A DNA stretch of 61,036 nt from positions 64,001-125,036 of the forward strand of contig CBFFWQ010000011.1 in the NCBI GenBank assembly GCA_965645705.1. Reading direction: 5' to 3'. The position numbers and the translations under genes are program-made. The stretch is from an uncultured Lachnospiraceae bacterium. Lineage in GTDB: Bacteria; Bacillota; Clostridia; Lachnospirales; Lachnospiraceae. Positions 1 through 59,744 of this stretch are shown here, piece after piece. How positions within the stretch are numbered: the first letter of the stretch is position 1; each line of letters starts with the position of its first letter. The notes below the pieces were generated by a model, which had not been told where the DNA came from, made no database searches, and worked only from the letters and a program-made list of their open reading frames with translations.

Positions 1-3000
1 AGTTTCAATTTATTAATTTTAACTTCCAAATCCATCTTTTCCTTAATTAATGGATTACCAACAGCTAAAGCTTTAATTTCTGCATACGTCAAAGTAGTTT
101 CATCAACATCATCATAGCGGCGAGAAAGTTCACGATTGGTCATAATCTGGCTAATAAACCTCTGCTTTGCTTCAATGATTTGCCAGTTATAACTATCGAA
201 AGTACCTTTTGTTAAATACCTAAAGATGAATACTTTATCACACTCATTACCTCTACGAAGAATACGACCTTCCCTTTGATCTATATCCGAAGGTCTCCAA
301 GGCACATCGAGATGATGGAGAGCCACTAAACGCTTCTGAACATTCATGCCAGCACCCATCTTCTGCGTAGAACCCATCAAAACACGAACCTTACCTGACC
401 TTACATTCTTAAACAATAAAGACTTCTCCTGATCAGTATTAAACTCATGTATAAAAGCAATCTCTTCTGCTGGAATACCTCTGTCTAGCAAAGCATCACG
501 CATAGCGTCATACACATTAAATACCATAGAACGAATGCCACGACTACCAGACTTCGGAACTGAAATATCACAAAAAATCAATTGCGTATACTTCTGCTCC
601 ATAGTAGATCTCCAAATACGATATACCTTATCTGCACAAATAGCAATCTTACAATTTTTATCTTCCCTTGCATCTGGATTAATGATACGAGGGTCTAAAG
701 CTAAAGCTCTACCCTCTGTTGTAATCTTCAACATATTATCTGTCGCTGGATCAATGCCACCACTTCTAATCAATTCAGCACGTTCTACTAATCCATCAAT
801 CATCAGTTTCTGTTGGTCGCTCGCATCTAAAGTAACGTTCTCATACTGACACTCAGGCAAATGCATATCTACATCTTCCAGCAACTCAATATCTGCAACT
901 TCCTTAAAAATACGAATAAGTTCTGGAATATTATAAAATCTGGAAAATCTATTTCGCACCATGTACTTATTACCTTCTGGTGCTAATTCGATTGCTACCG
1001 TTGTTTCACCAAAGGTGGATGCCCAGTCATCAAAATTCAAAAGCCTCAAGGACTCTAAAGTAGAATACTGAAGATACTTCATATTTGAATACATTTCCAC
1101 CATTGAATTGCTAATCGGAGTACCTGTTGCAAATACAATACCATGCTCACCAGTTAAACGATCCATAAAACGACACTTATCATACAAATTCTTTGACTTC
1201 ACAGAAGCACTTGTAGAAACACCTGCAACTCTTCCCATCTTGGTTTTCAATTCCAAATTCTTATAGTAATGACTCTCATCTATAAACAACTTGTCAATAC
1301 CCAACTGCTCAAAAAAGAGCTTTTTAACTGAACCGTTACTTTCATCTGGAGTTGCTAAAAGTTCTTGAAGTTCTTTCTTTAAATCGTCTGTCTGTTGTTC
1401 CAATTTGTCTGATTCATAAACATCGTGAGCATAATCTACTAAATAATTAATAATTTCATTATTTCTCTTAATCTGTTCCCTCAAACACTTAACTTGATAA
1501 TCACTAGACATCACTATTTTCTCGAATTGACTATGTCCGATAATAATAGCATCATAAGAACCACAAATAATCTGCGTACAAAACGCTTGTAATTGCTTTG
1601 CAGTAAAATCTTCTTTTGCAGATACCAAAATATTGGCAGCAGGATAAAGACGAATAAAATCATTACGCCACTGGTCAATCAAATGGTTTGGCACTACAAT
1701 CAAGGACTTTGTACACAAACCAAGCCTTTTTGATTCCATGGCAGCGGCAACCATCTCAAATGTCTTTCCAGCACCTACTTTCTGGGCTAACAATACATTA
1801 TTACCATACAGAATATGTGCAACTGCATTTCTTTGATGTTTCTCTAAAGTAATATTACTGGACATTCCAGGAAACCTTAAATAAGAACCATCATACTGAC
1901 AAGGAATAATAGAATTAAATAACTCATTATAAAGTTGACATAATTCTGTACACCTACCATGATCAGAGAAAATCCATTTAACAAATTCCTCCTTAATTGC
2001 ATCTTGTTTCTGAGCAGCAAGTGCTGTAGCTTCTTTATCTATTACATACTTATCATTCAAATTATCTTTTTTACGGATAGTAATCGCACGCAAATTCAGT
2101 GTAGACTCCAGAATCTGATAAGCATTCGCATCTGGAATACCGTAAGTAACTGTAGTAAATGTATTTCCAACATCCTCACGTTTACCATTAATAAACCATT
2201 CGCTTGTAGACTTTGAGAAATTCGTTTTAATTCTTTGCTGTTCACCTTCTGGTGGATTAATTAAATACTCTGGCGTTCTAAATACTTCTAGCATAAACTG
2301 ATCAATATATTTAGGATCAATCCATGTTGCACCAAGCCTTATATCTATCTCATGAGCACCTAAAGTTTTCGGTATACAAGCCTCAAGACGTTCTACATTA
2401 ATACTAAAACGTTCATCTTTTTCCATAGCCTTTTTAGCTTTTTCTAATTTTTCTCTCACATTTCCACTCAGATACTTATTTGATTGTTCCCAAACTAAAG
2501 TAACTGGATTGAGGAAAATTTTACCATGAAGCTGTTCTATCAACTGAGATACTTCTATACCTGAAAACATACTCATAAATTCAAGATCAACACCCGCCGT
2601 CTCTGACAAAGACAAAGCTAAAGCTTCCTCCGCTGTTGTCACCTCATTGTAACTAAAGCTATTTAACTTTGTAACTTCAAAGAAATCGGACTTACCAACA
2701 TACTCGCCATCATCATTAAACTTCTCTAAAGCACAAAGACGATAATAACTTGCGTCTTTACTAAATGCCTTTCGAGTTATTTCACTGTTGATATAAGCAC
2801 CATACTCTATATAATAATCATAATTATTAATCAATTCATTTTTGAGAGTCAATAAAGTTTCTTGATCTGCTTCCATCTGTACTGCATAAAGCAATTGATT
2901 TAAAGCATCTCGCACTGGTATAATATTAAATGCAGTTCCTTTTAAAGACAAATCCATACAAGACATATACATACGAGAATTATATCTGTAATACAAATCT

Positions 3001-4256
3001 ATCACACCAGTCTCATCAGTAAATCTTGTGTATGAAAAATTTGGAACATAAAAGAATGCTGGCATCCTATCTAATGCTGCAAAATAATTTATATCATCCG
3101 TATACGGCTCCTCGTACTTAAATTGTATGGAACTAAAGGCTTTATCTAAAGCACTTTCCAAATCTTCACCATCGTATCCACAAAAAACTTCTCCGCTTTC
3201 TTCATCCTTTTGCAACTTGCCGATAACTTGCTCAGGATTACTTTGAAAATACGAATTAATTAAAATACCTTCAAAATCACTTTGCATAAGAGCTTCTGTA
3301 AAATCTTCTATAAAAGCAGAAATCTTAGTCCAAAGTTCTTTACGTATATGAACTCCCAAATCTTTCTGTAAAAATATTAAATCGGAAGTATAATTTGGTC
3401 CAAGATTATCAGCAAACGTATAATCAGGCATTCTAATAGCACCCAATAGTACTGCTCTCTGATTAAGATACTCTAATACCTTACTCGCTTTCGTATCCAT
3501 TACATACGATGGAATAACTAAAGCGAGAATACCTCCTGGGCAAAGCAAATCTAAAGACCTGATAAGGAAATATTCTGGAAGTCTTGATTGCTTTACTCTG
3601 TAGCTAGGGTCAAAAATAAGTTCATCATTAAAAGGAGTTTGCCCTATTACTAAGTCAAAGAAATTATCAGGGTAATAAATATCCTTAAACTCTCCATAAC
3701 TCATCTGAATATTTGTCGTTACACGCATACAAATCTTGTATGCGATCGGATCACACTCTGCTCCATAAAACACACTGTTGCCAAATTCTTTTGGAACATT
3801 GCTAAAAGCTCCTCCAATGCCAACACAAGGATCCAATATATTACCACCATGAAATCCACATTCTACCAATTTCTTGTAAATTAAATCAAATAATTTCACT
3901 GGTGTTCTAAATGAATTGGATACGTGAGCCTTAATTATTTCATACTCTTCTGGATACAAATACTCCTGTAATTGCTTACGGTATTCTTCCCAGTCGGTGT
4001 TATCTTCATCAAAGATTTCCTCTAAACCGCTCCATCCTTCATAAGTCCGTAGGAATGCTCGCTCTTTTTGTAAAGGATCTCGCCCTTCCGTTTCGAGACA
4101 CCGTAGCAGATAAATAATCTGCAAATTATTAGTGTACTTATCAATTTTCATCTGTATCACATCTACTTGCTCAACAGATTGTTCCGCTTCTTCGCTGACT
4201 TCTTGCGTGTCGCTTAAGAAAGCATTCACTTTTTTAGCTTCTAAAATTTCATTCAA
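1..4256 (-). CDS. Partial giant DNA methyltransferase + SF2/SNF2-like helicase fusion; the N-terminal ~1419 aa lie in the window and the C-terminus runs off the window start
   Basis: The minus strand is open from ~4256 to position 1 and no stop-bounded minus ORF is listed here. Translation from 4256 gives LNEILEAKK...DPCVGIGGAF (SAM-binding motif of N6-adenine MTases) and ...GQTPFNDE. Helicase motif I LLAQKVGAGKTFEMVAAA lies near 1740-1800. Helicase motif VI VRVLMGSTQKMGAGMNVQ...LHHLDVPWRPSDIDQREGRILRRG lies near 240-390. The start is TTG at 4256 after AGGTAGGTG, or a downstream ATG. Confidence 0.7.
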   Translation of the reverse strand, partial: MNEILEAKKVNAFLSDTQEVSEEAEQSVEQVDVIQMKIDKYTNNLQIIYLLRCLETEGRDPLQKERAFLRTYEGWSGLEEIFDEDNTDWEEYRKQLQEYLYPEEYEIIKAHVSNSFRTPVKLFDLIYKKLVECGFHGGNILDPCVGIGGAFSNVPKEFGNSVFYGAECDPIAYKICMRVTTNIQMSYGEFKDIYYPDNFFDLVIGQTPFNDELIFDPSYRVKQSRLPEYFLIRSLDLLCPGGILALVIPSYVMDTKASKVLEYLNQRAVLLGAIRMPDYTFADNLGPNYTSDLIFLQKDLGVHIRKELWTKISAFIEDFTEALMQSDFEGILINSYFQSNPEQVIGKLQKDEESGEVFCGYDGEDLESALDKAFSSIQFKYEEPYTDDINYFAALDRMPAFFYVPNFSYTRFTDETGVIDLYYRYNSRMYMSCMDLSLKGTAFNIIPVRDALNQLLYAVQMEADQETLLTLKNELINNYDYYIEYGAYINSEITRKAFSKDASYYRLCALEKFNDDGEYVGKSDFFEVTKLNSFSYNEVTTAEEALALSLSETAGVDLEFMSMFSGIEVSQLIEQLHGKIFLNPVTLVWEQSNKYLSGNVREKLEKAKKAMEKDERFSINVERLEACIPKTLGAHEIDIRLGATWIDPKYIDQFMLEVFRTPEYLINPPEGEQQRIKTNFSKSTSEWFINGKREDVGNTFTTVTYGIPDANAYQILESTLNLRAITIRKKDNLNDKYVIDKEATALAAQKQDAIKEEFVKWIFSDHGRCTELCQLYNELFNSIIPCQYDGSYLRFPGMSSNITLEKHQRNAVAHILYGNNVLLAQKVGAGKTFEMVAAAMESKRLGLCTKSLIVVPNHLIDQWRNDFIRLYPAANILVSAKEDFTAKQLQAFCTQIICGSYDAIIIGHSQFEKIVMSSDYQVKCLREQIKRNNEIINYLVDYAHDVYESDKLEQQTDDLKKELQELLATPDESNGSVKKLFFEQLGIDKLFIDESHYYKNLELKTKMGRVAGVSTSASVKSKNLYDKCRFMDRLTGEHGIVFATGTPISNSMVEMYSNMKYLQYSTLESLRLLNFDDWASTFGETTVAIELAPEGNKYMVRNRFSRFYNIPELIRIFKEVADIELLEDVDMHLPECQYENVTLDASDQQKLMIDGLVERAELIRSGGIDPATDNMLKITTEGRALALDPRIINPDAREDKNCKIAICADKVYRIWRSTMEQKYTQLIFCDISVPKSGSRGIRSMVFNVYDAMRDALLDRGIPAEEIAFIHEFNTDQEKSLLFKNVRSGKVRVLMGSTQKMGAGMNVQKRLVALHHLDVPWRPSDIDQREGRILRRGNECDKVFIFRYLTKGTFDSYNWQIIEAKQRFISQIMTNRELSRRYDDVDETTLTYAEIKALAVGNPLIKEKMDLEVKINKLK

Positions 4257-4554
4257 AATACGCACCTACCTTTCAAAAACAAGGAACTATCAGGATTATA
4301 AACTAAGACACTAAACTACTTCATAAGATGTCACATAAATCACGTACCATAAAGGTGGTATTGCTGTAACAGTTTAGAATCACTAAGCTGACACTACGCA
4401 AAATAGACCTATCCGAGAATCATGATACTTTATTAGTAATTGTTGCAAGCCTTAAATCTACACAACAAAAACTAAACTCTATGACAGAATCCTTGCTTCT
4501 ATATAATGAACTGCAAAAAGCAAAATTCCCTGACAAGTCTAATGCTAATAACAC

Positions 4555-9030: not shown

Positions 9031-9057
9031 AATAATGGAGATGATACGAAAATACGG

Positions 9058-10939
9058 GGCTGTCGCACTAAGAATTAGTGTGTAGCTCCTTTTTTTTGAA
9101 AAAAAAGACTGTCAGACCTAGAAAAAATCTGACATTTTTGTAAAATATAAGTATGCAATTATTAAATATTTTACAAAAAAATTATAACCTAAATCAGAGT
9201 GGATATCAACTAAAACTTCCACTCAATCTTGAAATTTTAATTCCAGAAGATGATTCTGTGCGGTTACTAAGTCAGTTTGTGGAGGCAATGGATTTGACTG
9301 ACTTATATTCTACTTATGAAAGAATAAATTTAGTATCGCCAAGAACACTTCTTAAAATTGTCCTTTACTCTTATATGAATGGGGATTATTCTTCCCGTTC
9401 TATGGAGTTAAACGGTAAAAGAGATATTAATTTTATGTTTCTTTTAGAAGGTATGCCAGCACCTGATCACTCTACTTTTGCACGGTTTCGAAGCATTCAT
9501 TTTGCACCTTGCTCCAAACGTATTCTTGCAGAAATGTCGAATGCACTTTTTGATCTTGGCGAAATTTCTGGAGAAACTGTTTTTATTGATGGCACAAAGA
9601 TCGAAGCTTGTGCAAATAAATACACTTTTGTCTGGAAGAAAGCAGTCACAAAAAATCAAGCAAAACTTTTGATAAAACTGGCTAATTTTGTGGCAGAATG
9701 TGAACAGCTTTATGAAATAAAAATTGTGCATGGAGATACTATAAAAATGAAACACGTTAAGAAACTCCGAAAGAAACTGTATGCTTTAAAACAAAAGGAA
9801 CAGGTTGTTTTTGTTCATGGTATTGGGAAACGAAAAACTCCACTTCAAAAGAGCATAGAAACACTAGAAAACTACTTAGACAGACTCAAAAAATATAATC
9901 AGGAAATTTATATCTGTGGAAAAAGAAACAGCTATTCTAAAACAGATCACGATGCTACTTTCATGCGGATGAAAGAAGATGCTATGGGAAATGGGCAGCT
10001 AAAACCAGCATACAATCTTCAACACGGTGTAGACTCAGAATATATTTCCTGGGTTACGATTGGACCACAACCAACAGACACAACGACACTCATTCCTTTT
10101 TTAAAAGAGGCAGAAGAATATCTGAAATTTAAGTATAAAAATATCACTACGGACGCTGGGTATGAGAGTGAAGAAAACTATCACTTTTTGGAAACAAATG
10201 GACAGCTTTCCTATATCAAACCCACAAACTATGAGAGTTCCAAAACTCGTAAGTATAAAAATGATATTGGAAAAATGGAAACTATGGAGTATGATGCGGA
10301 ATCTGACAGTTATACTTGTAAAAACAACAAAAAACTGATGGTAGACCATATCCAACATTCGAAAACAAAAACAGGCTATCGCAGTGAAAAAACGATTTAC
10401 AAGTGTGAAGACTGCACTGGTTGTCCCTATAAAAAAGATTGCATCAAAGGAAACAACTGGAAAACACCTCTGGAAGAAAGAACCAAAACGCTACAAGTTG
10501 CCAAAACATTTTTGAAATACAGAGAGGAAGACTTCGAACGGATTCGTTCGGAAGAAGGAACTCTTTTTCGAACAAATCGAAGTATTCAAGTAGAAGGGTC
10601 TTTTGGCGATATCAAACAAGATATGCAGTTTCGGAGATATCTAAGCAAAGGGAACTCGAATGTGCTTGCAGAAAGCATCCTACTTGCTATGGCAAGGAAT
10701 CTAAAAAAACTCCATAACAAAATTCAAAAAGGTAACACGGGAATGCATTTATTTCCACTAAAAAGTGCCTAAATTTTGACCTTTTAAAAAATTTTTTTGA
10801 GCCATGGGAGATGGCTTATTAAAGTACGTCTTTTTTGTAAAATATTAACAGAAAATAGGAATTTTTTAAAAGTTATCCTAAAAAAGAGTAAACATAAGGC
10901 TGTTCTTTTACGATTTCTGAATCGTTAAAGCGACAGCCC
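9058..10939 (+). mobile_element. Insertion sequence of the IS1182/IS5 superfamily (~1.9 kb)
   Basis: Terminal inverted repeats GGGCTGTCGC at 9058-9067 and, reverse-complemented, at 10930-10939. It carries a single transposase ORF. It is the only plus-strand gene in the window and contains no copy of the window-wide CTAAAG motif. Confidence 0.75.
9153..10772 (+). CDS. DDE transposase, IS1182-family-like
   Basis: 539 aa. N-terminal motif PDHSTFARFRS (DUF772-type HTH of IS5/IS1182 transposases). C-terminal DDE region with Cys-rich zinc finger CKNNKK...CEDCTGCPYKKDC. Confidence 0.85.
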   Translation: MQLLNILQKNYNLNQSGYQLKLPLNLEILIPEDDSVRLLSQFVEAMDLTDLYSTYERINLVSPRTLLKIVLYSYMNGDYSSRSMELNGKRDINFMFLLEGMPAPDHSTFARFRSIHFAPCSKRILAEMSNALFDLGEISGETVFIDGTKIEACANKYTFVWKKAVTKNQAKLLIKLANFVAECEQLYEIKIVHGDTIKMKHVKKLRKKLYALKQKEQVVFVHGIGKRKTPLQKSIETLENYLDRLKKYNQEIYICGKRNSYSKTDHDATFMRMKEDAMGNGQLKPAYNLQHGVDSEYISWVTIGPQPTDTTTLIPFLKEAEEYLKFKYKNITTDAGYESEENYHFLETNGQLSYIKPTNYESSKTRKYKNDIGKMETMEYDAESDSYTCKNNKKLMVDHIQHSKTKTGYRSEKTIYKCEDCTGCPYKKDCIKGNNWKTPLEERTKTLQVAKTFLKYREEDFERIRSEEGTLFRTNRSIQVEGSFGDIKQDMQFRRYLSKGNSNVLAESILLAMARNLKKLHNKIQKGNTGMHLFPLKSA

Positions 10940-11044: not shown

Positions 11045-12259
11045 CTACTTGCTATCACTGGATTTCTCCGAAGAATTGCTGGAATCAGAAGAGGAAGCAT
11101 CATCAGAGGAAGCGGCTTTCTCTGCTTCACCAATAAAACTCAAAACACTCTCAAATGTAACCGCAGCTAAAGCATCGGAATCAATCTCTTTATCATAATC
11201 CCAATCCTTGTCCTCTTCTTCCTGCCAAACAATCATCTGTTCCGCAAATAAATCACTCTTAATGGAATCCGTATTCTCATTCAAATACTTTGTTGTCTTT
11301 GCTTTATCATATTCACTAACTAGAACAAGAACATGATAAGCATTTTCTGCTTCAATAATCTCGCTGTAATCTCCCTCTTTCTTCAAACTATTTGCAGCTT
11401 TAATTAAATCCTCTGAAAAGGAATCTTCATTTGCTTTACAATACACAATTTCCCCTGATAGGGAAGCATCTAAAGACTTCTTTACTTTACTATAAGAAGT
11501 GCCTGACTTTAACATAACTAAAGCTTGTTCTGCCTTAGCTTTCTGACGCTTTTTCTGCTTCTTTGTCATAGTAACAGCTTCCGTCATTCCACTCTCGTTA
11601 CCACTTTTATTCTTATAAAGTTCGAATTGTATATCGTACACAACTCTTTGACGATAATTCTTTTCGTCCAACTTTTCATACAATTTCTTTGTAACTGCAT
11701 CATAAACCTTATCAGCAATTGTGTTTTCAAGCAAAACTTTCTCAATGATACCAGAATTAAGTTCTGCAGTTTCAATTTGATCTTCTGTTAAATTAGCCAT
11801 AAACTGATCTGCATTAGCTACAGACTTTTCTCTTTCTTCATCCGTTAATTCTACCCCATACTCAGCTACTTTCTCATTCATCATAGCGACCATCATAATC
11901 TGATCCATTAAGCCGCTACGTACACTGTCTGCAAAAGTATAAGTATTTCCATCACCATCTTCTCCAACTGGTGTAGACCATACATCAGTACCGTAGACTT
12001 CTTCGTACTGTGCTTGCATAGCAAATGCATACACCCATAACTCCTGCATCGTGATTTCATGATTATGATAAGTACCAATCACAAAATCTACTGGGTACTC
12101 CTTTTCTTTCTCTGTTTCATTTGATTCTGTCCTGACTACATCATCCTTACTCGCTGAACACCCTGTTACTCCAGAAGATAATACTGCTGTCGCAAGTAGC
12201 AGAACTAAAGGTTTCCTCACACTGGATAATGCTTCAAGCACTAAATACTTCTTTTTCAT
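11045..12259 (-). CDS. Lipoprotein, PrsA/SurA-N-terminal-domain-like candidate foldase, with a Ser/Asp-rich tail
   Basis: Lipobox SGVTGC after a signal peptide. The central region resembles parvulin-type PPIase/PrsA. The C-terminus is SSDDASSSDSSNSSEKSSDSK. Confidence 0.45.
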   Translation of the reverse strand: MKKKYLVLEALSSVRKPLVLLLATAVLSSGVTGCSASKDDVVRTESNETEKEKEYPVDFVIGTYHNHEITMQELWVYAFAMQAQYEEVYGTDVWSTPVGEDGDGNTYTFADSVRSGLMDQIMMVAMMNEKVAEYGVELTDEEREKSVANADQFMANLTEDQIETAELNSGIIEKVLLENTIADKVYDAVTKKLYEKLDEKNYRQRVVYDIQFELYKNKSGNESGMTEAVTMTKKQKKRQKAKAEQALVMLKSGTSYSKVKKSLDASLSGEIVYCKANEDSFSEDLIKAANSLKKEGDYSEIIEAENAYHVLVLVSEYDKAKTTKYLNENTDSIKSDLFAEQMIVWQEEEDKDWDYDKEIDSDALAAVTFESVLSFIGEAEKAASSDDASSSDSSNSSEKSSDSK

Positions 12260-12295: not shown

Positions 12296-13066
12296 CTACA
12301 ACACAAGTCCTTCTATAGTACGTTCTTTTTTAATTTCTTTCGTTGTCATGAATAAGTATTTATAATTACACCCATAGTCAGTGTCCATCCAGCAAGTATC
12401 TAAATGATACTTTACGTCTTTCAATACAACAGAATTCCATGAATGATACTCGCCCGAACTACGAATAAATCCCGTTTCCAGATGGCTCTTGATACCAGCC
12501 TTACAAAGTAATTTATAAACTAAAGAACTGTATCCCTGACACACTGCACTCTGATGAAACAACGCATCATACCCACTGTAATTTGTCAATGAATCATCAT
12601 ACGAAACTCGATACACTACAAATTCACAAATACGCCGAATTTTCTTGCGTTTACTCAATCCCTCTAAATGCAGTTGATCAATTACTCTCTGACACCCAGC
12701 ATCCAACCTCTTTACCTGCTCATAACTCATAACATACTTTGCTTCAAATTCCACTTTCATACCTTCAGCAGTTTCTATTTTTCTTGCACTAATTTCCTTT
12801 AAGTTATTAGACAAAAATTCCCCATCATTCGTTGAATTCTTAAAGTCTACTTTCATAGCTTTTTCAAAAAGTTTCTTGCATTCTATCGTTGAAGGAGAAT
12901 AATCATTCTCGCAATACAATACAAACTCCTCATTGCATAGCACAAGGTTTTTGGCAAGCTCGACAAAAAACTCGGTTTCAGTTCTAACTGCTGCTGAGAC
13001 TGGACACGGCTTCAAACACACTATGAGAAGAACTGCAAATACAAACAATAAAACCTGTTTTCTCAT
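12296..13066 (-). CDS. Secreted transglutaminase-like cysteine peptidase
   Basis: Signal peptide. Core motif AVCQGYSSLVYKLLCKAGIKSHLETG...YHSWNSV (Cys...His transglutaminase-like fold). Confidence 0.65.
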   Translation of the reverse strand: MRKQVLLFVFAVLLIVCLKPCPVSAAVRTETEFFVELAKNLVLCNEEFVLYCENDYSPSTIECKKLFEKAMKVDFKNSTNDGEFLSNNLKEISARKIETAEGMKVEFEAKYVMSYEQVKRLDAGCQRVIDQLHLEGLSKRKKIRRICEFVVYRVSYDDSLTNYSGYDALFHQSAVCQGYSSLVYKLLCKAGIKSHLETGFIRSSGEYHSWNSVVLKDVKYHLDTCWMDTDYGCNYKYLFMTTKEIKKERTIEGLVL

Positions 13067-13078
13067 ACCAATACCTTT

Positions 13079-13936
13079 CTAACCTAAAGGATTGTTCACG
13101 GAATCCTGCTCAGAATCTGAAGAATCTATTTTTAAATTAAATGCACCTACAATTGATTTCTCCTTTAAGGATTTCTGTAAGCCTTCTATTTCGACAACTA
13201 AAGAATGACTATCTAAATCAACGATACAATAATAAAATACTTTCTGCTTACTACCGTCCTGATAAGTAATTTTATAGTATACAAAATCAACATCACCATA
13301 ACTGACACTCTTCTGTACACCTACTTCGACGTTATCATACACGCTAGTGTATACTGTATACACATCATGCACACTATCCGTAGCTTCCAATAAACTCTGT
13401 CCATTCAAATAGTAAGTTACTGTATTCTCACCTTCAGCATCTGAAAATACCGCAACACTATCCAATAAAGCTTTTTGCTTCATCCCCTTAAACAACGGTA
13501 CGGTTAAGATTGCCTTATACTTATGGTCACGAATGATGCACCCTTCTGTTCCAAAAGCGAAGTCATTTGCCTTATACTTAATTTCCTTGTTGTTAACAAC
13601 AGAAATACCGTCAAAAGCACTAGTATTAGAAATGCTACTGGAAATCTCTGCAACTGCTGGATCAGCATACCCGCCAGTGTCAGGATCTACACTTTCCGTA
13701 GCAACACCAGAATTGAAACTTGCATCTATGTTCTCTACAATGCTACTTCCATCATACACAGACAAGTTCTTCATTAATTTCACCTTATCTACTTCTGGTA
13801 AATTCATCACTACTTGAGCGTTAGAATCCTGAGAGTGAAAGACATACCCATAGAAACTATACAAACTACCTACTGCCATACACAAAATAGGAACAATTAA
13901 TAAATTTTTAGCTTTCATTCGACACCTCAATTGCAC
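13079..13936 (-). CDS. Membrane-anchored/secreted hypothetical protein
   Basis: 285 aa with an N-terminal TM/signal segment. Confidence 0.5.
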   Translation of the reverse strand: MQLRCRMKAKNLLIVPILCMAVGSLYSFYGYVFHSQDSNAQVVMNLPEVDKVKLMKNLSVYDGSSIVENIDASFNSGVATESVDPDTGGYADPAVAEISSSISNTSAFDGISVVNNKEIKYKANDFAFGTEGCIIRDHKYKAILTVPLFKGMKQKALLDSVAVFSDAEGENTVTYYLNGQSLLEATDSVHDVYTVYTSVYDNVEVGVQKSVSYGDVDFVYYKITYQDGSKQKVFYYCIVDLDSHSLVVEIEGLQKSLKEKSIVGAFNLKIDSSDSEQDSVNNPLG

Positions 13937-14013: not shown

Positions 14014-14832
14014 TCAGTCACTGTCAAAAATCTCTTTTTTAATCAAATCCTGCAATGACTCGAAAGATTCTAAATTACCAGGATCTTCATAATCATAAAT
14101 TGCAATTACAACATTACTAAACACTTTTCTATAAGATTTTAAAATACTACCCAGTACCTTAACTATCGTACTTTCTTTATAACCACGCTGCTGAAAATTC
14201 AAGTCATTTAAAACAACAGTATCTATGGAATGCCTACAAGCTACCTTAAAAGCAAGAAGTAATTTCTCTGTCAAATTACTTCTCAAAAATAATTCATCGT
14301 ATTCAATTCCTTTTACACTAGGAGCAGCAATTGTAATCACATCTAACAAAAACCAATGCTGTAAAAATTCAGCATTGAAATCATCCGTCTTTATCTGTAT
14401 CACTTTTGGTGAGTACACTACACTACTTGTTCCATAGACAGGATCTCCTTCTCCATAAAATCGAGTCATTACTTTGGTGCAACTGAGACTTCTATACAAA
14501 TTTGTACTACGGCACAAAGACTCTTCTGTAAAAGGATAACCTAAAGTTACTCCGCCACCAGGAATACTTCTATCGCCACAATTGATAACACAAATTTTAG
14601 AATGCTCATTAGCATTCAATTTTGTAGCTGCATTAAGAATTCTATCATTAGTAAAAATTAATCTTCCGCTTCGTACAGGATCTAAAGATTCCTCGCACTT
14701 ACTATACACAATTGTTTTTTCCACCATATTTCTTGTGAACATCCTAATTTTATTAGGACGTTCTATAACAGCATTCAAGTGCATGAAATCCTGCATTAAC
14801 TTAGCCCTGACACCTTCTTTCATTTCTAACAC
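14014..14832 (-). CDS. Macrodomain protein of the bacterial PARG-like family (DUF2263/TIGR02452-like)
   Basis: Motif ICVINCGDRSIPGGGVTLGYPFTEESLCRSTNLY matches the PARG signature GGG-x6-8-(Q/T)EE of ADP-ribose glycohydrolase macrodomains. Confidence 0.55.
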   Translation of the reverse strand: MLEMKEGVRAKLMQDFMHLNAVIERPNKIRMFTRNMVEKTIVYSKCEESLDPVRSGRLIFTNDRILNAATKLNANEHSKICVINCGDRSIPGGGVTLGYPFTEESLCRSTNLYRSLSCTKVMTRFYGEGDPVYGTSSVVYSPKVIQIKTDDFNAEFLQHWFLLDVITIAAPSVKGIEYDELFLRSNLTEKLLLAFKVACRHSIDTVVLNDLNFQQRGYKESTIVKVLGSILKSYRKVFSNVVIAIYDYEDPGNLESFESLQDLIKKEIFDSD

Positions 14833-14986: not shown

Positions 14987-15610
14987 TTATTCTTTGAATA
15001 ATAATGCGGGAGATTCACCTAAAGAAATTACATAATCAGTACAACCTACTGGGATTACAAAAATAAACCTTCCTTTACACGGAGTATTACCAATAAAATA
15101 ATCCCTATCAGTTTCGATAAATCTTGTTGTACTTACCTTATAACTTTTTCTCTCAAATACAATTTCCAAGGACAAATCTAAAGAGAGGATCTCTGATGCA
15201 ATACGAGTATGATAATACGCATAAAATTTATCCACCTCTGGAACAATGGTGTATTCAGCAATTGCAAACTCCAAATCTTTATTTTTCAAATTTGCAATCG
15301 GTCGTAGCTTTGTTTCCTGATTATAAGCAGTTACAATGGCAAGTGCCTCTTTTCCACGAATTACACGATCTAAAGAGACCTTCGCCTCAAACACTTCAAC
15401 TGTCTGATCGCTATGCTTCTTAAAATCTGGATTGTAAAGTTCCGTTTTTCCAGACTCACCTACACTTAATGCAAAATCCTCCAGCAAGGCTTCTTCCTGC
15501 AAATCTTCTGTATACGACTGCCGTACTTCTCGCTGTTCCCATGGTTCTATAATAATAAACACAATAGCAATAGCCATCACAACCATGCCTATACATAACT
15601 TTTTACGCAT
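14987..15610 (-). CDS. Membrane-anchored hypothetical protein
   Basis: 207 aa with an N-terminal TM helix. Confidence 0.5.
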   Translation of the reverse strand: MRKKLCIGMVVMAIAIVFIIIEPWEQREVRQSYTEDLQEEALLEDFALSVGESGKTELYNPDFKKHSDQTVEVFEAKVSLDRVIRGKEALAIVTAYNQETKLRPIANLKNKDLEFAIAEYTIVPEVDKFYAYYHTRIASEILSLDLSLEIVFERKSYKVSTTRFIETDRDYFIGNTPCKGRFIFVIPVGCTDYVISLGESPALLFKE

Positions 15611-15618
15611 GAACTAAA

Positions 15619-15861
15619 TCACCACAGTTCCTCTTCAGCAAAATTATTCAAACGCCTTGACTCATTTTCATTATCCAATAAGCCATCAAGCTCTTTACGA
15701 ACCTGTCGCTGTTGCTCTCCTGTCAACGCACTTTCCTCTTCTTCTTTCATCATTAATTGATAGGCTAACATCTCCGTTGCCTCACTTAAAGATGAAAGAA
15801 CAGATTCATCTACAATAACTGCCATAAAGCCACCACCTCTCAATAGAACTAAAGGGAACAC
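15619..15861 (-). CDS. Small acidic hypothetical protein
   Basis: 80-aa ORF abutting the upstream gene. Confidence 0.35.
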   Translation of the reverse strand: MFPLVLLRGGGFMAVIVDESVLSSLSEATEMLAYQLMMKEEEESALTGEQQRQVRKELDGLLDNENESRRLNNFAEEELW

Positions 15862-16026: not shown

Positions 16027-18102
16027 TTAAATGCGAGGAATATCATAATACTTCAACAAAGTGTTCAAAACACTAAGATTAGCAACATCACTCAAATCAA
16101 TACAATAAACTTCAACCAAGCCTATAATCTCTTTCTTTACATCAGCTAAAGCTTCATACATAGTTTCTGAAGTGTAAGAAGTGCTTCCCTCCAAACCAGC
16201 TACTAGATAATTATGCTCACGATTAAGTTCTTCTACCTTGTTAATAATCGCAGCAGTAGAAACAGCTTTTGCAGACATCACATACTGACCATCTACCATG
16301 CGGCACAACTTCCAGTAATTCTCACGAGCTTGAACATAATACGGATACATCTCAAAATCACTTGTTGCTAGACCACTGACACTAGCCAATGCATCTTCAA
16401 CAGCACTACGTGCTCTGCCTAACTTTGTCTGTAGAATCCTTAATCTAGCAGAATCACCACTGTACTCGGTTACATTAATTACATTCGAGTCATTCATTAA
16501 TTCTTCACGAATAACCTTATTGACATTGTCAATCTTTGCCTGCTGTTCCGCAGAATACGAAATTGCCTGTACTGCCAGAGTTACACTTGCTACTTGAGAA
16601 GCACAAACACCATAAATAACTACTTCGCCTTTCTTCTTAGCTGTTACAAGACCAGTCGTACTGTTCACTGTAGCAACACTTGTATCAGAAGAAACAAAGG
16701 AAGTATTCTTCTGGTTGGATTCGACCATGCAAGTATCTCCTTCTTTCAGAATAGTAGCAGAAGGAGTTAACTGCAATACCTCAGCAGAACCAACATAATC
16801 CACTACAATCTGCGTCTTAATGGACACTCCGTTATGGTATGCAAAAATATTACAAGTCCCAATATTGTTTGCAGTTAAAACACCAGTCTTAGCATCAATG
16901 GAAGCAATCTCTGGATTATCACTTACAAATACAGCATCTTTCTTATTCACTGTAATTGTTGCAGTAGTACCCACTTTATAAGAAGAAGCTACTTTCTCAA
17001 AACCTAAAGGCTGCGTATCATTGGATACCACTACTTGGAATACTATAGTTTCAGTACCAGAAATAGCGTAAATGGTAGTAGTACCTGGGGCAATCGCTTT
17101 CACAAGACCAGAAGCAGAATCAACGGTCGCAACTTCGGACTGCTCAGAAATCCATGTTACACCAGCTTTATTTGCTGTAAAAATCTTCTGATCACCTACA
17201 GTTAAATAAGTAACCTTATCTGTAGTAGCTTCAAGAGAACCTACCTCTTTAGCATAAACCGTAATAATTACGCTAACTGTAGCACCTTCATAAGTCGCAT
17301 AAATAGTGGTACTTCCCGTAGCTAAAGCCTCTACATTACCGTTCTTATCAATCGTAGCAACCTTTGGATCAGAGGACGAGAAAGAAACACCTGTCTTGTT
17401 TGTTTCGATTTTCTGTTTCTTCCCAACTACCATTGCCGCACTAGATTTCGTGATTTTTAAAGGTTCTGTAGACTTAGCTACAACCGTAACTACTTTAAGA
17501 ATAGATACACCCTTAAATGTAGCAGTAATTACCGTACTACCTGGAGCTACTGCTGTTAACCTACCAGTAGTAGCATCTACCGTTGCAGCTGCTACATTAG
17601 AAGACATGTACACAATTCCTTTATTCTTTACATTAGTAACATAATCAGAAGTCTTCCCAACCTCCAAACTATCGGCACCTGCTTTAAACTTCATCTCGCC
17701 CACACTCACACGATAATGAGCATAAGCAATCTGCGTACCATAAGTCCTTGTAACACGAATAATGCAAGTACCTACACTAATACCTGTAATTGCTCCTGTT
17801 GATGCATCAATAGTCGCAATCGCAGGATTAAGACTCTCATACTTATAAGAAATCGTACTTCCAGTGCTATACCGTGGTAAGCACTTAGAAACCATTCCTT
17901 TCAAAATCACATAATTTCTTTTAATCTTAACAGTTTGTCCTGCCACCTGCACTATGTCAGAAGTAGCTGAAATTGCCTCCACACCAGATGCTTCAGCTAC
18001 GCTGTTACTAACTACAGGTGTACCACTAAAGCACAAAGATGCTGCTATTACAGCAGCCAAAATTTTCTTTTTCAATTTTATACCTCCTGTTTCATGTAAC
18101 AA
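16027..18102 (-). CDS. Surface protein with six bacterial Ig-like (Big_2) repeats
   Basis: Signal peptide. Six repeats of the pattern A(T/S)(I/V)D..TG.(L/I)TA...G...I.A. Confidence 0.7.
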   Translation of the reverse strand: MLHETGGIKLKKKILAAVIAASLCFSGTPVVSNSVAEASGVEAISATSDIVQVAGQTVKIKRNYVILKGMVSKCLPRYSTGSTISYKYESLNPAIATIDASTGAITGISVGTCIIRVTRTYGTQIAYAHYRVSVGEMKFKAGADSLEVGKTSDYVTNVKNKGIVYMSSNVAAATVDATTGRLTAVAPGSTVITATFKGVSILKVVTVVAKSTEPLKITKSSAAMVVGKKQKIETNKTGVSFSSSDPKVATIDKNGNVEALATGSTTIYATYEGATVSVIITVYAKEVGSLEATTDKVTYLTVGDQKIFTANKAGVTWISEQSEVATVDSASGLVKAIAPGTTTIYAISGTETIVFQVVVSNDTQPLGFEKVASSYKVGTTATITVNKKDAVFVSDNPEIASIDAKTGVLTANNIGTCNIFAYHNGVSIKTQIVVDYVGSAEVLQLTPSATILKEGDTCMVESNQKNTSFVSSDTSVATVNSTTGLVTAKKKGEVVIYGVCASQVASVTLAVQAISYSAEQQAKIDNVNKVIREELMNDSNVINVTEYSGDSARLRILQTKLGRARSAVEDALASVSGLATSDFEMYPYYVQARENYWKLCRMVDGQYVMSAKAVSTAAIINKVEELNREHNYLVAGLEGSTSYTSETMYEALADVKKEIIGLVEVYCIDLSDVANLSVLNTLLKYYDIPRI

Positions 18103-28754: not shown

Positions 28755-29123
28755 TAAATCCCTGCCTTTCCCAAATATTAAAAATTTAAAACCAGACTCA
28801 CTAGCTGTAAAATTTACTACTAACTGAAAAGATATACCAACTATAACAAATATTTATTGGCAAATCTAAAACTCGTGAGTATATGCTAAACTTTCTTAAT
28901 GCATTTATTGCAAAAAAATAAAAGAGGTCAGTTAAGACTTCTTCTAATAACTTTCAAACTATTGTTTCAATCCACTCAGCAGTTAGGAGCAAGACAATTA
29001 CGTGGATTGCTTCATGACAAAGGATACCGCTTTCGCTCCGCCAGCTACTACCGTTACACTTGTTCCTAGCAATTCCTCCACCTACCTCAGAGGAAGAGGA
29101 ATCCTTACTGTTAATTGTTGAAT

Positions 29124-29668
29124 TTATTTTCTCCGATTATTTCCTAAAAAAGCATTTACTGGTTTTGCATCTAAAGAACTTGCATCAGTGTCACTTGTCT
29201 TTTTCTTCTTAGAAAAAATCTTATCATAATATTTTCTACTTGCTTCTGAATAATTATACTCTTGTTCTGCAATCTCATGTGCAGTAGTCACAGAATAATC
29301 GGGATTTTGCAACAGTATGGTAATCTCATACAACTCATGTTGGAGCATAAGTACATCATGAGGTTCTATATGTGCAAAATTTTTTCTGTCAATCGTCCCC
29401 ATGACTCAGCCATAGCATAATCAGGATCAAACGTTCTAAACCTACCGTTCCTACGCCAATGACAATTTTCAAAAATATAATCCCTTACAATCATAATCTG
29501 TTCAATAGAAAAATCGGTACGATCTGCAATTTTCGCACAATCAATAAATTTATTCCTGTTTCTAAACTGTTCGTATATTTTTTTGCAATATCTAGTGACT
29601 CAGGATCTCTATCAGGATCGTGAGCACCACTTTGCAAAAAATTCCTTTCATTCTCTTGCATAATCTAC
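29124..29668 (-). pseudogene. Possible frameshifted gene (three frame segments)
   Basis: The minus strand reads MQENERNFLQSGAHDPDRDPES...LNRL*, then in another frame IDCAKIADRTDFSIEQIMIVRDYIFENCHWRRNGRFRTFDPDYAMAESW, then the annotated ORF MGTIDRKNFAHIEPHD.... The junctions are in A/T runs. Confidence 0.3.
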
Positions 29669-29901
29669 CCCCACATTACTGAATAAATTTCTGGCAAAAA
29701 ACCGTCTTCTTCCATCGCAAGTAATAAATTTCCAGTAGCTTTAAAAACCTCCCAATCACGGTCATCTGGTGAAATCTCCCATCTTCTTTCCTTTCTAAAA
29801 ATTTTTACATCAAAATACCTGTTTGTTTTTGGATGATACGCCTTTGCCCAAATAAAATCATCATCATACCTAATTTCCATAAAATCAACCATTTTACACA
29901 C
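29665..29901 (-). CDS. Small hypothetical protein (78 aa)
   Basis: ORF MCKMVDFMEIRYDDDFIWAKAYHPK...; a degenerate internally deleted second copy follows at ~29960-30150. Confidence 0.4.
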   Translation of the reverse strand: MCKMVDFMEIRYDDDFIWAKAYHPKTNRYFDVKIFRKERRWEISPDDRDWEVFKATGNLLLAMEEDGFLPEIYSVMWG

Positions 29902-29959
29902 TCCTTTACTGTTCTAATTTTTAAACTATTCTTATGAAATCTTTTACAATACGTAAGGA

Positions 29960-30150
29960 TTCAGGATTTTCCCCAGAATTTCAAACACCACTTTGCAACA
30001 AATTACCCCCACATTACTGAATACTCTTCTGGCAAAAAATCATCTTCTTTCCTTTCTAAAAATTTTTACATCAAAATACCTATTTATTCTTGAATGATAC
30101 GCCTTTGCTCAAATAAAATCATCATACCTAATTTCTGTAAAATTAACCAT
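29960..30150 (-). repeat. Degenerate, internally deleted tandem duplicate of the 29600-29905 unit
   Basis: Near-identical strings (caccactttgcaa...cccccacattactgaata...ctttctaaaaatttttacatcaaaatacct...gatgatacgcctttgc...aaataaaatcatcat...cctaatttc) with a ~70-bp deletion and point changes. Confidence 0.6.
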
Positions 30151-30384
30151 AGTAAAAACTCATTTACTATTTTAATGGATCTCTCATATAATGAAGACGT
30201 AATTTACCTCTTGTTCTTGCATCATACTGCATACCACCTATTAGTATCTCTACATCAGCAGAATCATTATTAGGTTCAATTTATTTTAATACTTTTTTAC
30301 ATTAAAATAAATACTTTGCTTAATAATTTTTCTTTACAAAATAATCTATAATCTAAAGTGTGGAGTTCTGTTATAAAAACCACA

Positions 30385-38346: not shown

Positions 38347-39141
38347 CTATTCTAAGAATGAAAATATAGGAAGTGCCTTTGAATTCGTATTTTCATTATT
38401 AGCTTTTGTACTATCTATTAATCCTTCAACAGTTTTTTTATACCAATCCTGTTCAACTTTAAAATATAAAATTAAATCTTCAAAAATTCCCATTTTCTGT
38501 GCTTTATTTATTGCAGTAATATACTGTAATTTATTAGAATCCCTTACAATAAAAGGAATCAAATTATTATTAAGGCACTCACGAAATAAGAGCATCCGTC
38601 CTGTTCTACCATTACCATCTTGAAAAGGATGTATGGCTTCATATAAAGCATGAAACTCAGCTAAGTCATCTAAGGTTTTATTAGAATTTCCATAACGTTC
38701 TAATAATTTTCTCATTGCTGCAGGAACATCTTTTGGTAGTATAGTTTGAATATCATTTACGACATTTGCACGTGTCTTATAATCCCCAATAGCATATCCA
38801 TTAGCTATATCCTCAAAAACCCCTTGTTTCAATATTTTATGAAAGTTCTTAATTAATTCCTCAGATAAGTTATCTTCCAATGTTTTAAGCATAAAATTAA
38901 ATAATGCAAAATGTCCAGATGTTTCTTCAATATCTTTAGCTCGGTAAATGCCATCTGCATAAATAGTTCCTGTACTAAATAAAGAAGCAGTTTGATCCTT
39001 ACTCAACTTGCTACCTTCTATTTTGTTTGAATTATAAGCAAACTCTCTTTGAGTAAAACCGTAAACTCCGCTACGAATTTCATGTTCTTTTTCTTGAATT
39101 AAAGCAGTTAATAACAATTGATTAAAATCATTCATATGCAA
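38347..39141 (-). CDS. fic: Fic-domain AMPylase with an N-terminal inhibitory helix
   Basis: Fic motif HPFQDGNGRTGR. Inhibitory motif S-x-x-x-E-G (SNKIEGS) upstream of the Fic core (class II arrangement). Confidence 0.85.
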   Translation of the reverse strand: MHMNDFNQLLLTALIQEKEHEIRSGVYGFTQREFAYNSNKIEGSKLSKDQTASLFSTGTIYADGIYRAKDIEETSGHFALFNFMLKTLEDNLSEELIKNFHKILKQGVFEDIANGYAIGDYKTRANVVNDIQTILPKDVPAAMRKLLERYGNSNKTLDDLAEFHALYEAIHPFQDGNGRTGRMLLFRECLNNNLIPFIVRDSNKLQYITAINKAQKMGIFEDLILYFKVEQDWYKKTVEGLIDSTKANNENTNSKALPIFSFLE

Positions 39142-58400: not shown

Positions 58401-59744
58401 TTATGCAGAGGATACTGCAAAAATACTATCATACAAATCTCTGTCTACATTCAAATCATCAAAATGGATACTATCCACGATTCGTGTTTTGAAATTCAAG
58501 AATGATTTTACTTCTTTATAATTGTAATACGCTATATTTCCAAATAGCTGTACTTCTTTATTGAGGAAGATTGTTAATGGAAAAGAATAAAAAATCTCAA
58601 TTAATTTTGTGCGTGCCGCCTCCAAATTACTTTTTAAAGGTGTAATGAAATAAAATACATTTGTAATTTTATTCTTATGCGTCCTACATAAATACTGAAT
58701 TATTTCTTTTTCAGCAACAATGAACACCTCATCTAAATTACTATAATCAAGCTTTTCCAAAAAGCTAAAGAGAAAGTCTTTGATAACTTCAAATTCTTTA
58801 TCACTGTTTGGGGTACAAACATTTATCACGCCTTGCTTTAACTCACTTTCTGAAAGTAAATTAAACATAGAGACTTCTTTAAAGTTACTACCACCTATTT
58901 CCAATAAAGACACAATATCTCTATTTTTAGCAAAATTAAGTACAAGAGTACACTTATCTGCATCTATCGCTGAAGAAGCTAAAGCAGAAGCCCAAATACT
59001 CTTTCCTGATTTTGCGTCACCCATAAACAAAGTAATATGTGTCTTAAGCAATACACCAGAATCCTGCAAAGTTCCGATAACGGGATTATCATAACTTGCT
59101 ATATCTTTATCATCTAAAGATTCGAATTTCTGCCCTGACTCTATCTTTAGAGCATTTGCCTTTGCTTTATCGTACTTATAAACACTCTCATGCTGAAAAG
59201 GTTCAATAATATAAGAACCTGCTTTTTCTGGCACATAAGCTTTGTTAGCTGGATTCCCCTTCTCATACCTATAAAATTTACTTTTAGTATTATGGAAATC
59301 CTCTACTTGGGTTGTGCCAAGTAGATAACTATTAATTTCCTGAAAGGAAAGTTTACCTTTTACTGTATTGACGCTGTACACGATATTAAATCGTTTGCCA
59401 GTTTCTTTAGCTTCTAACTTACATTCACTCATTACAGCCTGAAAATACTTACTTGCTTCAATAGCATCTTCACTTTCCTTTTGTATAAAAACAATTTCCT
59501 TTGTTTTAAAAAAGCCATCATTTACAATCAAATTTTGTAAAATAGACATATCTAATCGACTTTTCATTTGAGCAGACTGATAAACATAAAGAAATTTATC
59601 TACCGTAATAATAGAATTACGAATTTCTTCTTCATACTCATACAGATTTTTATAAGCGAAGTCTACCTTGAACACGCCAGAACTTCCTAAATGCCTCGCT
59701 AATTCGTTGGTCTGTTCACCAGCTACTATCATTAACTTAATCAT
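58401..59744 (-). CDS. P-loop NTPase
   Basis: Walker-A-like FMGDAKSGKSIWASALA. Confidence 0.45.
   Translation of the reverse strand: MIKLMIVAGEQTNELARHLGSSGVFKVDFAYKNLYEYEEEIRNSIITVDKFLYVYQSAQMKSRLDMSILQNLIVNDGFFKTKEIVFIQKESEDAIEASKYFQAVMSECKLEAKETGKRFNIVYSVNTVKGKLSFQEINSYLLGTTQVEDFHNTKSKFYRYEKGNPANKAYVPEKAGSYIIEPFQHESVYKYDKAKANALKIESGQKFESLDDKDIASYDNPVIGTLQDSGVLLKTHITLFMGDAKSGKSIWASALASSAIDADKCTLVLNFAKNRDIVSLLEIGGSNFKEVSMFNLLSESELKQGVINVCTPNSDKEFEVIKDFLFSFLEKLDYSNLDEVFIVAEKEIIQYLCRTHKNKITNVFYFITPLKSNLEAARTKLIEIFYSFPLTIFLNKEVQLFGNIAYYNYKEVKSFLNFKTRIVDSIHFDDLNVDRDLYDSIFAVSSA

Follow-up and report, generated by a model that had tools for sequence, protein, structure and literature searches.

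The window analysed here, a 61,036-nucleotide stretch of contig CBFFWQ010000011.1 from an uncultured Lachnospiraceae bacterium, carries a gene for a divergent protein of the poly(ADP-ribose) glycohydrolase (PARG) fold in which the Glu-Glu catalytic loop is kept and the diphosphate-binding loop has been replaced. The gene is under strong purifying selection and is maintained, and its product is of the microbial PARG type (PF10021/TIGR02452/DUF2263), not of the DarG/TARG1 type. TIGR02452 proteins are already known from large mobile genomes (phage G gp114, Lak phages, giant viruses); the novelty here lies in the loop, rebuilt in a clade that is under selection and extremely rare. Reasoning from the sequence and by analogy with studied enzymes, we tentatively propose, with a little less than even confidence, that the protein has remained a glycohydrolase, acting on an O-glycosidic adduct of the ADP-ribose type, and that it would hold the phosphate part of its ligand differently and have a protective role.

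The open reading frame (ORF) begins with a GTG codon 8 nt past a GGAG, and neither a signal peptide nor a transmembrane segment was predicted in its product. The protein matched PF10021 (PARG_cat_microb) with E=1.4e-17 (64.9 bits against a cut-off of 23.5) and, over nearly the full length of the model, TIGR02452 of NCBIfam with E=4.5e-18 (65.7 bits against a cut-off of 50). Its sole phmmer matches among PDB sequences were the solved bacterial PARGs of T. curvata (1.8e-7) and D. radiodurans (5e-5). From an alignment of 99 sequences, AlphaFold2 gave a confident model with a predicted local distance difference test (pLDDT) of 95.7 and a predicted template-modelling score (pTM) of 0.93; its best Foldseek match was TcPARG (3sih; E=1.3e-14, template-modelling (TM) score 0.77), and the DarG macrodomains scored 13.9 and 12.4 in the structural comparison. 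The model shows a macrodomain fold with the catalytic loop specific to PARGs and extra helices at the N terminus, the solved bacterial PARGs being its nearest structures, and the ALC1/TARG1-like macrodomains were not its best structural class. The initial annotation of this DNA, made from the letters alone, had called the gene a PARG-like macrodomain of the DUF2263 type and had proposed structure prediction against PARG and DarG as a check; family matches and fold both bear that identification out. A scan for promoters and terminators around the gene gave counts not above those in shuffled sequence.

An exhaustive phmmer search of 1.84 billion 50%-identity representatives, at E-values up to 0.001, returned 1352 family members. 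After the self-match (P0001), the best match was P0019 at 1.4e-33 and all others were at 1e-21 or weaker, which marks the protein as a family outlier. P0019, its nearest relative outside the clade described below, is a 547-aa protein with two tandem PARG-type domains, each bearing canonical QEE and GAFGCG loops. Column counts were taken from a MAFFT alignment of 113 sequences, in which the query was compared with 110 relatives from the best 150 of the 1352 matches. Among 31 positions conserved in at least 90% of these relatives, 19 are kept and 12 changed; three of the changes are conservative (L83I, I139V and R190K), and the nine non-conservative ones all lie inside the three ligand-contacting segments.

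The catalytic loop reads P91-GGG-VTLGYPF-TEE-S105, with a spacer of seven residues as in the family, and is identical across all seven 272-aa variants; the GGG-x7-TEE motif on which the initial annotation was built is present. The corresponding family block is LNFASA..PGGGV..G..AQEE.LCR.S.LY., with column counts of 109/110, 109/110 and 90/110 for the three glycines and of 109/110, 110/110 and 109/110 for Q, E and E. Set against the signature GGG-X6-8-QEE, the protein has the three glycines and two consecutive glutamates and deviates at T102, where the family has Q. E103 and E104 both align to family glutamates, so the loss of the catalytic glutamate that would have spoken against the initial annotation was not found.

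The glycine-rich diphosphate-binding loop with its hydrophobic patch (G-A-[FW]-G-C-G-[AV]-[FY]) is absent. Residues 209-218 replace the family's G-A-F-G-C-G-[AV]-F-x-N and, over a fuller span, L-N-D-L-N-F-Q-Q-R-G-Y-K-E stands for L-G-A-F-G-C-G-[AV]-F-x-N-x-P; the family counts for this loop are G 107, A 102, F 88, G 107, C 103, G 107, A/V 101 and F 100 (n=110). By motif, G224/C225/G226/V227/F228 of DrPARG correspond to N212/F213/Q214/Q215/R216 here. In DrPARG, the pyrophosphate is held by the main-chain amides of Gln110, Gly224, Gly226, Val227 and Phe228, S95 lies near the distal ribose, and the E112A enzyme is inactive (PMC6445106), as is TcPARG E115A (entry 3sij). Catalysis needs a strained ribose conformation, which is imposed by the G[A,V][F,Y] patch (PMC7050489, PMC4030884); the Phe places the ADP moiety so as to stabilise the oxocarbenium intermediate, and both Glu are needed (PMC4030884). 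No PARG F875A mutant was found in a literature search. Judged from the alignment, the second half of the PARG active site is gone in the window's protein. Since sequence score, fold and catalytic loop fit the family and the diphosphate loop does not, we regard it as a divergent variant of microbial PARG, not a standard member. The step from signature to ADP-ribose removal, as taken in the initial annotation, therefore stands in part: the Glu pair and GGG are kept, but the diphosphate loop is replaced and the NFAS and QEE motifs are altered.

The remodelled loop is common to only three 90%-identity clusters among 5.8 billion proteins, and a profile search for further clade members returned the same three. 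The window's own cluster comprises the identical protein (P0001) on 49 contigs and variants on dozens more, P0007-P0011 and P0017 being >90% identical to the window's protein; the second cluster (P0002) is 53% and the third (P0003) 44-48% identical. Within the clade, the family's QEE becomes TEE or AEE, NFAS becomes NCGD, and the loop reads N-D-L-N-F-Q-Q-R/H. In the clade alignment (44-53% identity), N209, L211, G217 and Y218 are invariant, and each lineage has one basic residue at 214, 215 or 216; R216 is H in five variants. That the new loop is itself conserved at 44-53% identity argues for a re-specified pocket rather than decay. Compared with the variant on the 285-kb contig L006 (90.4% DNA identity), the gene has a ratio of non-synonymous to synonymous substitution rates (dN/dS) of 0.085 at a dS of 0.44, and three nearby genes gave 0.081, 0.129 and 0.179.

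In the mechanism we favour, the Glu-Glu pair would cleave the O-glycosidic ribose linkage of an ADP-ribose-type adduct, as in poly(ADP-ribose) (PAR) or 2'-OH-ADP-ribosylated RNA, and the ligand phosphates would be held by Asn/Gln/Arg/Tyr side chains instead of glycine main-chain amides, giving an altered substrate range. The protein may in this way strip a toxic ADP-ribose-type modification stemming from competitors' toxins or host defences, to the benefit of the element or its host. The one demonstrated role of bacterial PARGs is protection against an RNA-ADP-ribosylating toxin: SCO0909 and DRB0099 remove the 2'-OH RNA ADP-ribose made by RhsP2 and protect E. coli from it, and the family has a patchy distribution through horizontal transfer (PMC11833690). 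Several observations weigh against the proposal. With N212, Q214, Q215 and R/H216 in place of the phosphate-binding residues, the protein may no longer bind and cleave in the canonical way; position 216, where the family has Phe, varies among R, H, F and Y within the clade, and the loop geometry in the AlphaFold2 model is perhaps borrowed from the canonical sequences that dominate its alignment. P0003 carries G93A and E104A, that is, GAG for GGG and A-E-A for Q-E-E. As E104A is the substitution that inactivates TcPARG and DrPARG, the shared function of the clade may not need catalysis. In addition, Pfam scans of 51 ORFs and a PADLOC scan of 10 recognised no ADP-ribosyltransferase (ART), poly(ADP-ribose) polymerase (PARP), Sir2 or DarT family, nor did they reveal a known defence or anti-defence partner near the gene.

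In an alternative, the protein is a pseudo-enzyme or reader, with the PARG fold serving as a binding or scaffold module, or for another ligand such as a nucleic acid or nucleotide, without ADP-ribose hydrolysis. It is suggested by the missing Phe and Gly residues of the mechanism and by the exchange of Glu for Ala in P0003, and some macro-like domains with degenerate loops behave so. However, neither the window's lineage nor P0002 has lost any part of GGG or either Glu, and dN/dS is as low as given above; this would hardly be expected of a catalytic loop without a role, and P0003 is known from a single 1.3-kb contig whose sequence has no independent check. We judge this non-catalytic alternative somewhat unlikely, though nearly as likely as the reading as a protective hydrolase. 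A further reading starts from the exchange itself, a polar Asn/Gln/Arg/Tyr loop for the universal glycine-rich phosphate loop of macrodomains with Glu-Glu kept. The protein would then be the glycohydrolase, or else the sensor, of another and so far undescribed adduct, ADP-ribose-like or of a nucleotide sugar, and would serve as a module for conflict or immunity on a giant, unclassified extrachromosomal element of gut Lachnospiraceae; this seems to us rather unlikely.

Three other explanations were weighed. The 279-aa exported protein encoded downstream, or another secreted protein of the same block, could be an ADP-ribosylating effector from which the PARG-like enzyme protects its producer by reversing the modification, in the way of Tri1 with Tre1. 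Among the exported proteins of the block, a cytoplasmic hydrolase stands out, and bacterial PARGs can act as immunity against an ART toxin (PMC11833690). In L010, a contig of ~1.2 kb from a distant relative, a homologue of the 279-aa protein overlaps the PARG-like stop by 4 nt, which suggests translational coupling; the downstream fragment is 29% identical to that protein over 107 aa, so that the order is kept at 44-48% identity for the PARG-like and 29% for the exported protein. Synteny among related elements may, however, be mere common descent, and no neighbour has an ART family match. A homologue search with the 279-aa protein gave only four sequences, all near-identical. Its tentative R / S-T-S / E-x-E pattern is not conserved in its homologues (with C or Y for R, and YSS or YSG for YTS), and its AlphaFold2 model was unusable (pLDDT 30.5). 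We consider this pairing improbable. Still less probable is the function put forward in the initial annotation, in which a conjugative element entering its recipient as single-stranded DNA would use the hydrolase to remove DarT-type ADP-ribose from that DNA, or the gene would supply the antitoxin of a pair resembling DarTG. In its favour are a macrodomain encoded on what looks like a mobile element, the orphan DarG-like or NADAR antitoxin mimics carried by phages (PMC11481870, PMC11825919, PMC13309987) and the window's methylase-SNF2 helicase and cell-wall hydrolases, which are of a kind seen on conjugative elements. The protein is nevertheless of the PARG fold class, and no DarT (DUF4433) was matched by Pfam or PADLOC on either side of its gene; the PARG-type macrodomain and its mobile-looking carrier survive from that annotation, and the reading as DarG beside DarT is rejected on fold class, PADLOC and the absence of DarT from the 51 ORFs scanned. 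Least probable of all is an ordinary bacterial PARG in endogenous PAR turnover, as proposed for D. radiodurans. Family membership and the intact Glu-Glu pair would agree with that role, which we hold less likely than protection, but the diphosphate loop is non-canonical, the gene lies on an accessory element and encodes a family outlier, and no PARP gene was found in about 80 kb.

Comparison with known systems sets the protein apart from each of them. It is ~20% identical to the bacterial-type PARGs (TcPARG 3sig/3sih, DrPARG 5zda-5zdg, SCO0909) and has NDLNFQQR, NCGD and T where these have GA[FW]GCG[AV]F, NFAS and Q. Canonical, eukaryotic PARGs (Tetrahymena 4epp, human) possess an accessory domain and a tyrosine clasp, both missing here, and they keep the GCGAFGG loop, which the window's protein lacks. 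DarG (M. tuberculosis 5m3i, T. africanus DarTG 7omu) and TARG1 belong to another, ALC1/TARG1-like macrodomain class with Lys-based catalysis and no GGG...EE loop, and DarG is paired with DarT, whereas the window's gene has neither DarT nor a PADLOC match nearby. Viral PARG-like proteins (Bacillus phage G gp114, Lak megaphages, Pandoravirus, Mimivirus-like) are likewise of the TIGR02452/DUF2263 type and encoded on very large mobile genomes, but they are only distant relatives (22-25% identity by tblastn for the Lak phages and phage G gp114; TM 0.73-0.77), and the window's carrier gave no IMG/VR match with the PARG-like protein and no structural families in PHROGs. With hydrolase immunity (Tri1 for Tre1, bacterial PARG against RhsP2) it shares the idea of a cytoplasmic ADP-ribosylhydrolase that detoxifies by reversal (PMC11833690); Tri1, however, has the ARH fold, and no cognate toxin was recognised beside the window's gene.

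Table 1. Features of the window discussed in the text (aa, amino acids; positions are those of the window).
Feature	Position	Strand	Remarks
PARG-like macrodomain gene	14014-14832	(-)	272 aa, cytoplasmic, single domain
Catalytic-loop codons P91-G92-G93-G94...T102-E103-E104	14521-14562	(-)	GGG-x7-TEE, read from sequence
Strand-end motif N84-C85-G86-D87 (family N-F-A-S)	14572-14583	(-)	column counts
Remodelled diphosphate-binding loop N-D-L-N-F-Q-Q-R-G-Y, residues 209-218	14179-14208	(-)	MAFFT alignment, column counts
68-aa very acidic protein ending EELW	15619-15825	(-)	conserved upstream neighbour; no family assignment
207-aa protein, N-terminal membrane anchor	14987-15610	(-)	between 68-aa protein gene and PARG-like gene
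279-aa exported/N-terminally anchored protein	13079-13918	(-)	conserved downstream neighbour; no family assignment
Secreted transglutaminase-core protein	12296-13066	(-)	
Lipoprotein, weak peptidyl-prolyl isomerase (PPIase) match	11045-12259	(-)	
Protein with six Big_2 repeats	16027-18102	(-)	
Further lipoproteins	start coordinates 18153, 19306, 21652, 26318	(-)	
Insertion sequence (IS), 1884 bp	9056-10939		
IS transposase ORF	9153-10772	(+)	DDE_Tnp_1_6/DUF772
Methylase-SNF2 helicase, 1609-aa fusion	3-4265, on past left end	(-)	N-terminal 1421 aa in window
Fic-domain protein	38347-39141	(-)	PADLOC PDC-S04 (candidate single-gene defence) E=2.5e-88; SoFic 1.9e-22
Walker-A proteins, 666 and 447 aa	54071-56071 and 58401-59744	(-)	motif at residues 295 and 242
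Short ORFs only (92 aa or less)	28755-30384		1.6 kb; no Rfam/tRNA match

The surroundings of the gene (Table 1) agree with the cluster of surface-protein genes described in the initial annotation: the neighbours of the cytoplasmic PARG-like protein are exported or membrane-anchored, and all are encoded on the minus strand. The same gene order was found around the PARG-like gene in all contigs recovered with the PARG-like protein, bar an IS insertion specific to the window. Among the immediate neighbours, the 68-aa acidic protein gave sub-threshold matches only (Phd/YefM, E 0.009; KwaB, E 0.002), and the 207-aa protein had no family match. In L009, another ~1.2-kb contig from a distant relative, a 60%-identical homologue of the 68-aa protein lies 24 nt upstream of the PARG-like gene (tblastn 7e-21) and directly adjoins it, the gene for the 207-aa protein being missing at that place. 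As neighbours are kept in the distant L009 and L010, the trio of small acidic, PARG-like and exported protein predates the present element. The IS has terminal inverted repeats GGGGCTGTCGC... and ...GCGACAGCCC and splits a 225-aa gene that is whole in L001 and L093; the empty site holds an 18-bp palindrome, TGACGATCATGATCGTCA, in the exact place of the IS, and a target duplication is not obvious.

The carrier is a large element, extrachromosomal or mobile and for the most part uncharacterised, from gut Clostridia and probably from Lachnospiraceae; a megaplasmid, a conjugative element and a very large phage are candidates. Its G+C content is ~35% and its GC skew strongly negative, and almost all of its genes share one strand. 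Contigs with the PARG-like gene reach 285 kb, those of 172-285 kb coming from samples ERZ16672883 and ERZ14651025. A match in Pfam was lacking for 29 of the 51 ORFs; recognisable genes encode a DnaB-like helicase, a CHC2 primase finger, a RuvC-like resolvase, a sigma-70-like factor, GreA-N-like and Hsp70-like proteins, NERD and HRDC proteins, signal peptidase S26, a SleB-type hydrolase and a 1176-aa NlpC/P60 and C39-like protein. The methylase-SNF2 fusion joins an N6-type DNA methyltransferase to an SNF2/DEAD helicase (PADLOC DrmD/BrxH-like and MTase_II; Pfam WH_1, DUF8437 and Helicase_dom). The two Walker-A proteins, encoded upstream of the NlpC/P60 and C39-like wall hydrolase, had no sequence match in Pfam, PHROGs or PDB and could be very divergent transfer or packaging ATPases. 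A 1.6-kb segment with short ORFs only stands amid tightly packed one-strand genes. In the 10 kb past each window end (L091/L092 on the right, L093 on the left) we found a DnaX-like clamp loader and a 2202-aa protein without a Pfam match.

No relaxase, coupling protein or VirB4-type ATPase was recognised in the 61 kb and ~15 kb of flanks, with contigs reaching 285 kb and most of the element therefore unseen, and no capsid, portal or terminase in window and flanks. tRNA and Rfam searches gave no match on the carrier, and PHROGs gave generic replication, lysis and Ig-domain matches only. Megablast of 24 kb of the window against PLSDB returned no match; at the protein level, the only matches in PLSDB were TIGR02452 proteins of 24-32% identity, encoded on megaplasmids of Treponema and Butyrivibrio. 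With the PARG-like protein as query, neither IMG/VR nor the representative genomes of GTDB yielded a relative. The transposases nearest to that of the IS are 85-89% identical and lie in Lachnospiraceae genomes, from which we infer that the host is probably a gut Lachnospiraceae. The carrier may be the more interesting object, with its contigs of 285 kb or more, its replication and transcription genes and a gene content that mostly matches no family.

Bacterial PARGs are widespread, and their physiological roles are largely obscure. A selected gene in which the glutamates are kept and the phosphate loop is rebuilt amounts to a natural experiment on which parts of the active site serve what. For annotation, it means that a GGG-x-EE signature alone does not establish ADP-ribose removal. 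An active protein would broaden the family's range of substrates, and an inactive one would be the first pseudo-enzyme or reader of the PARG type.
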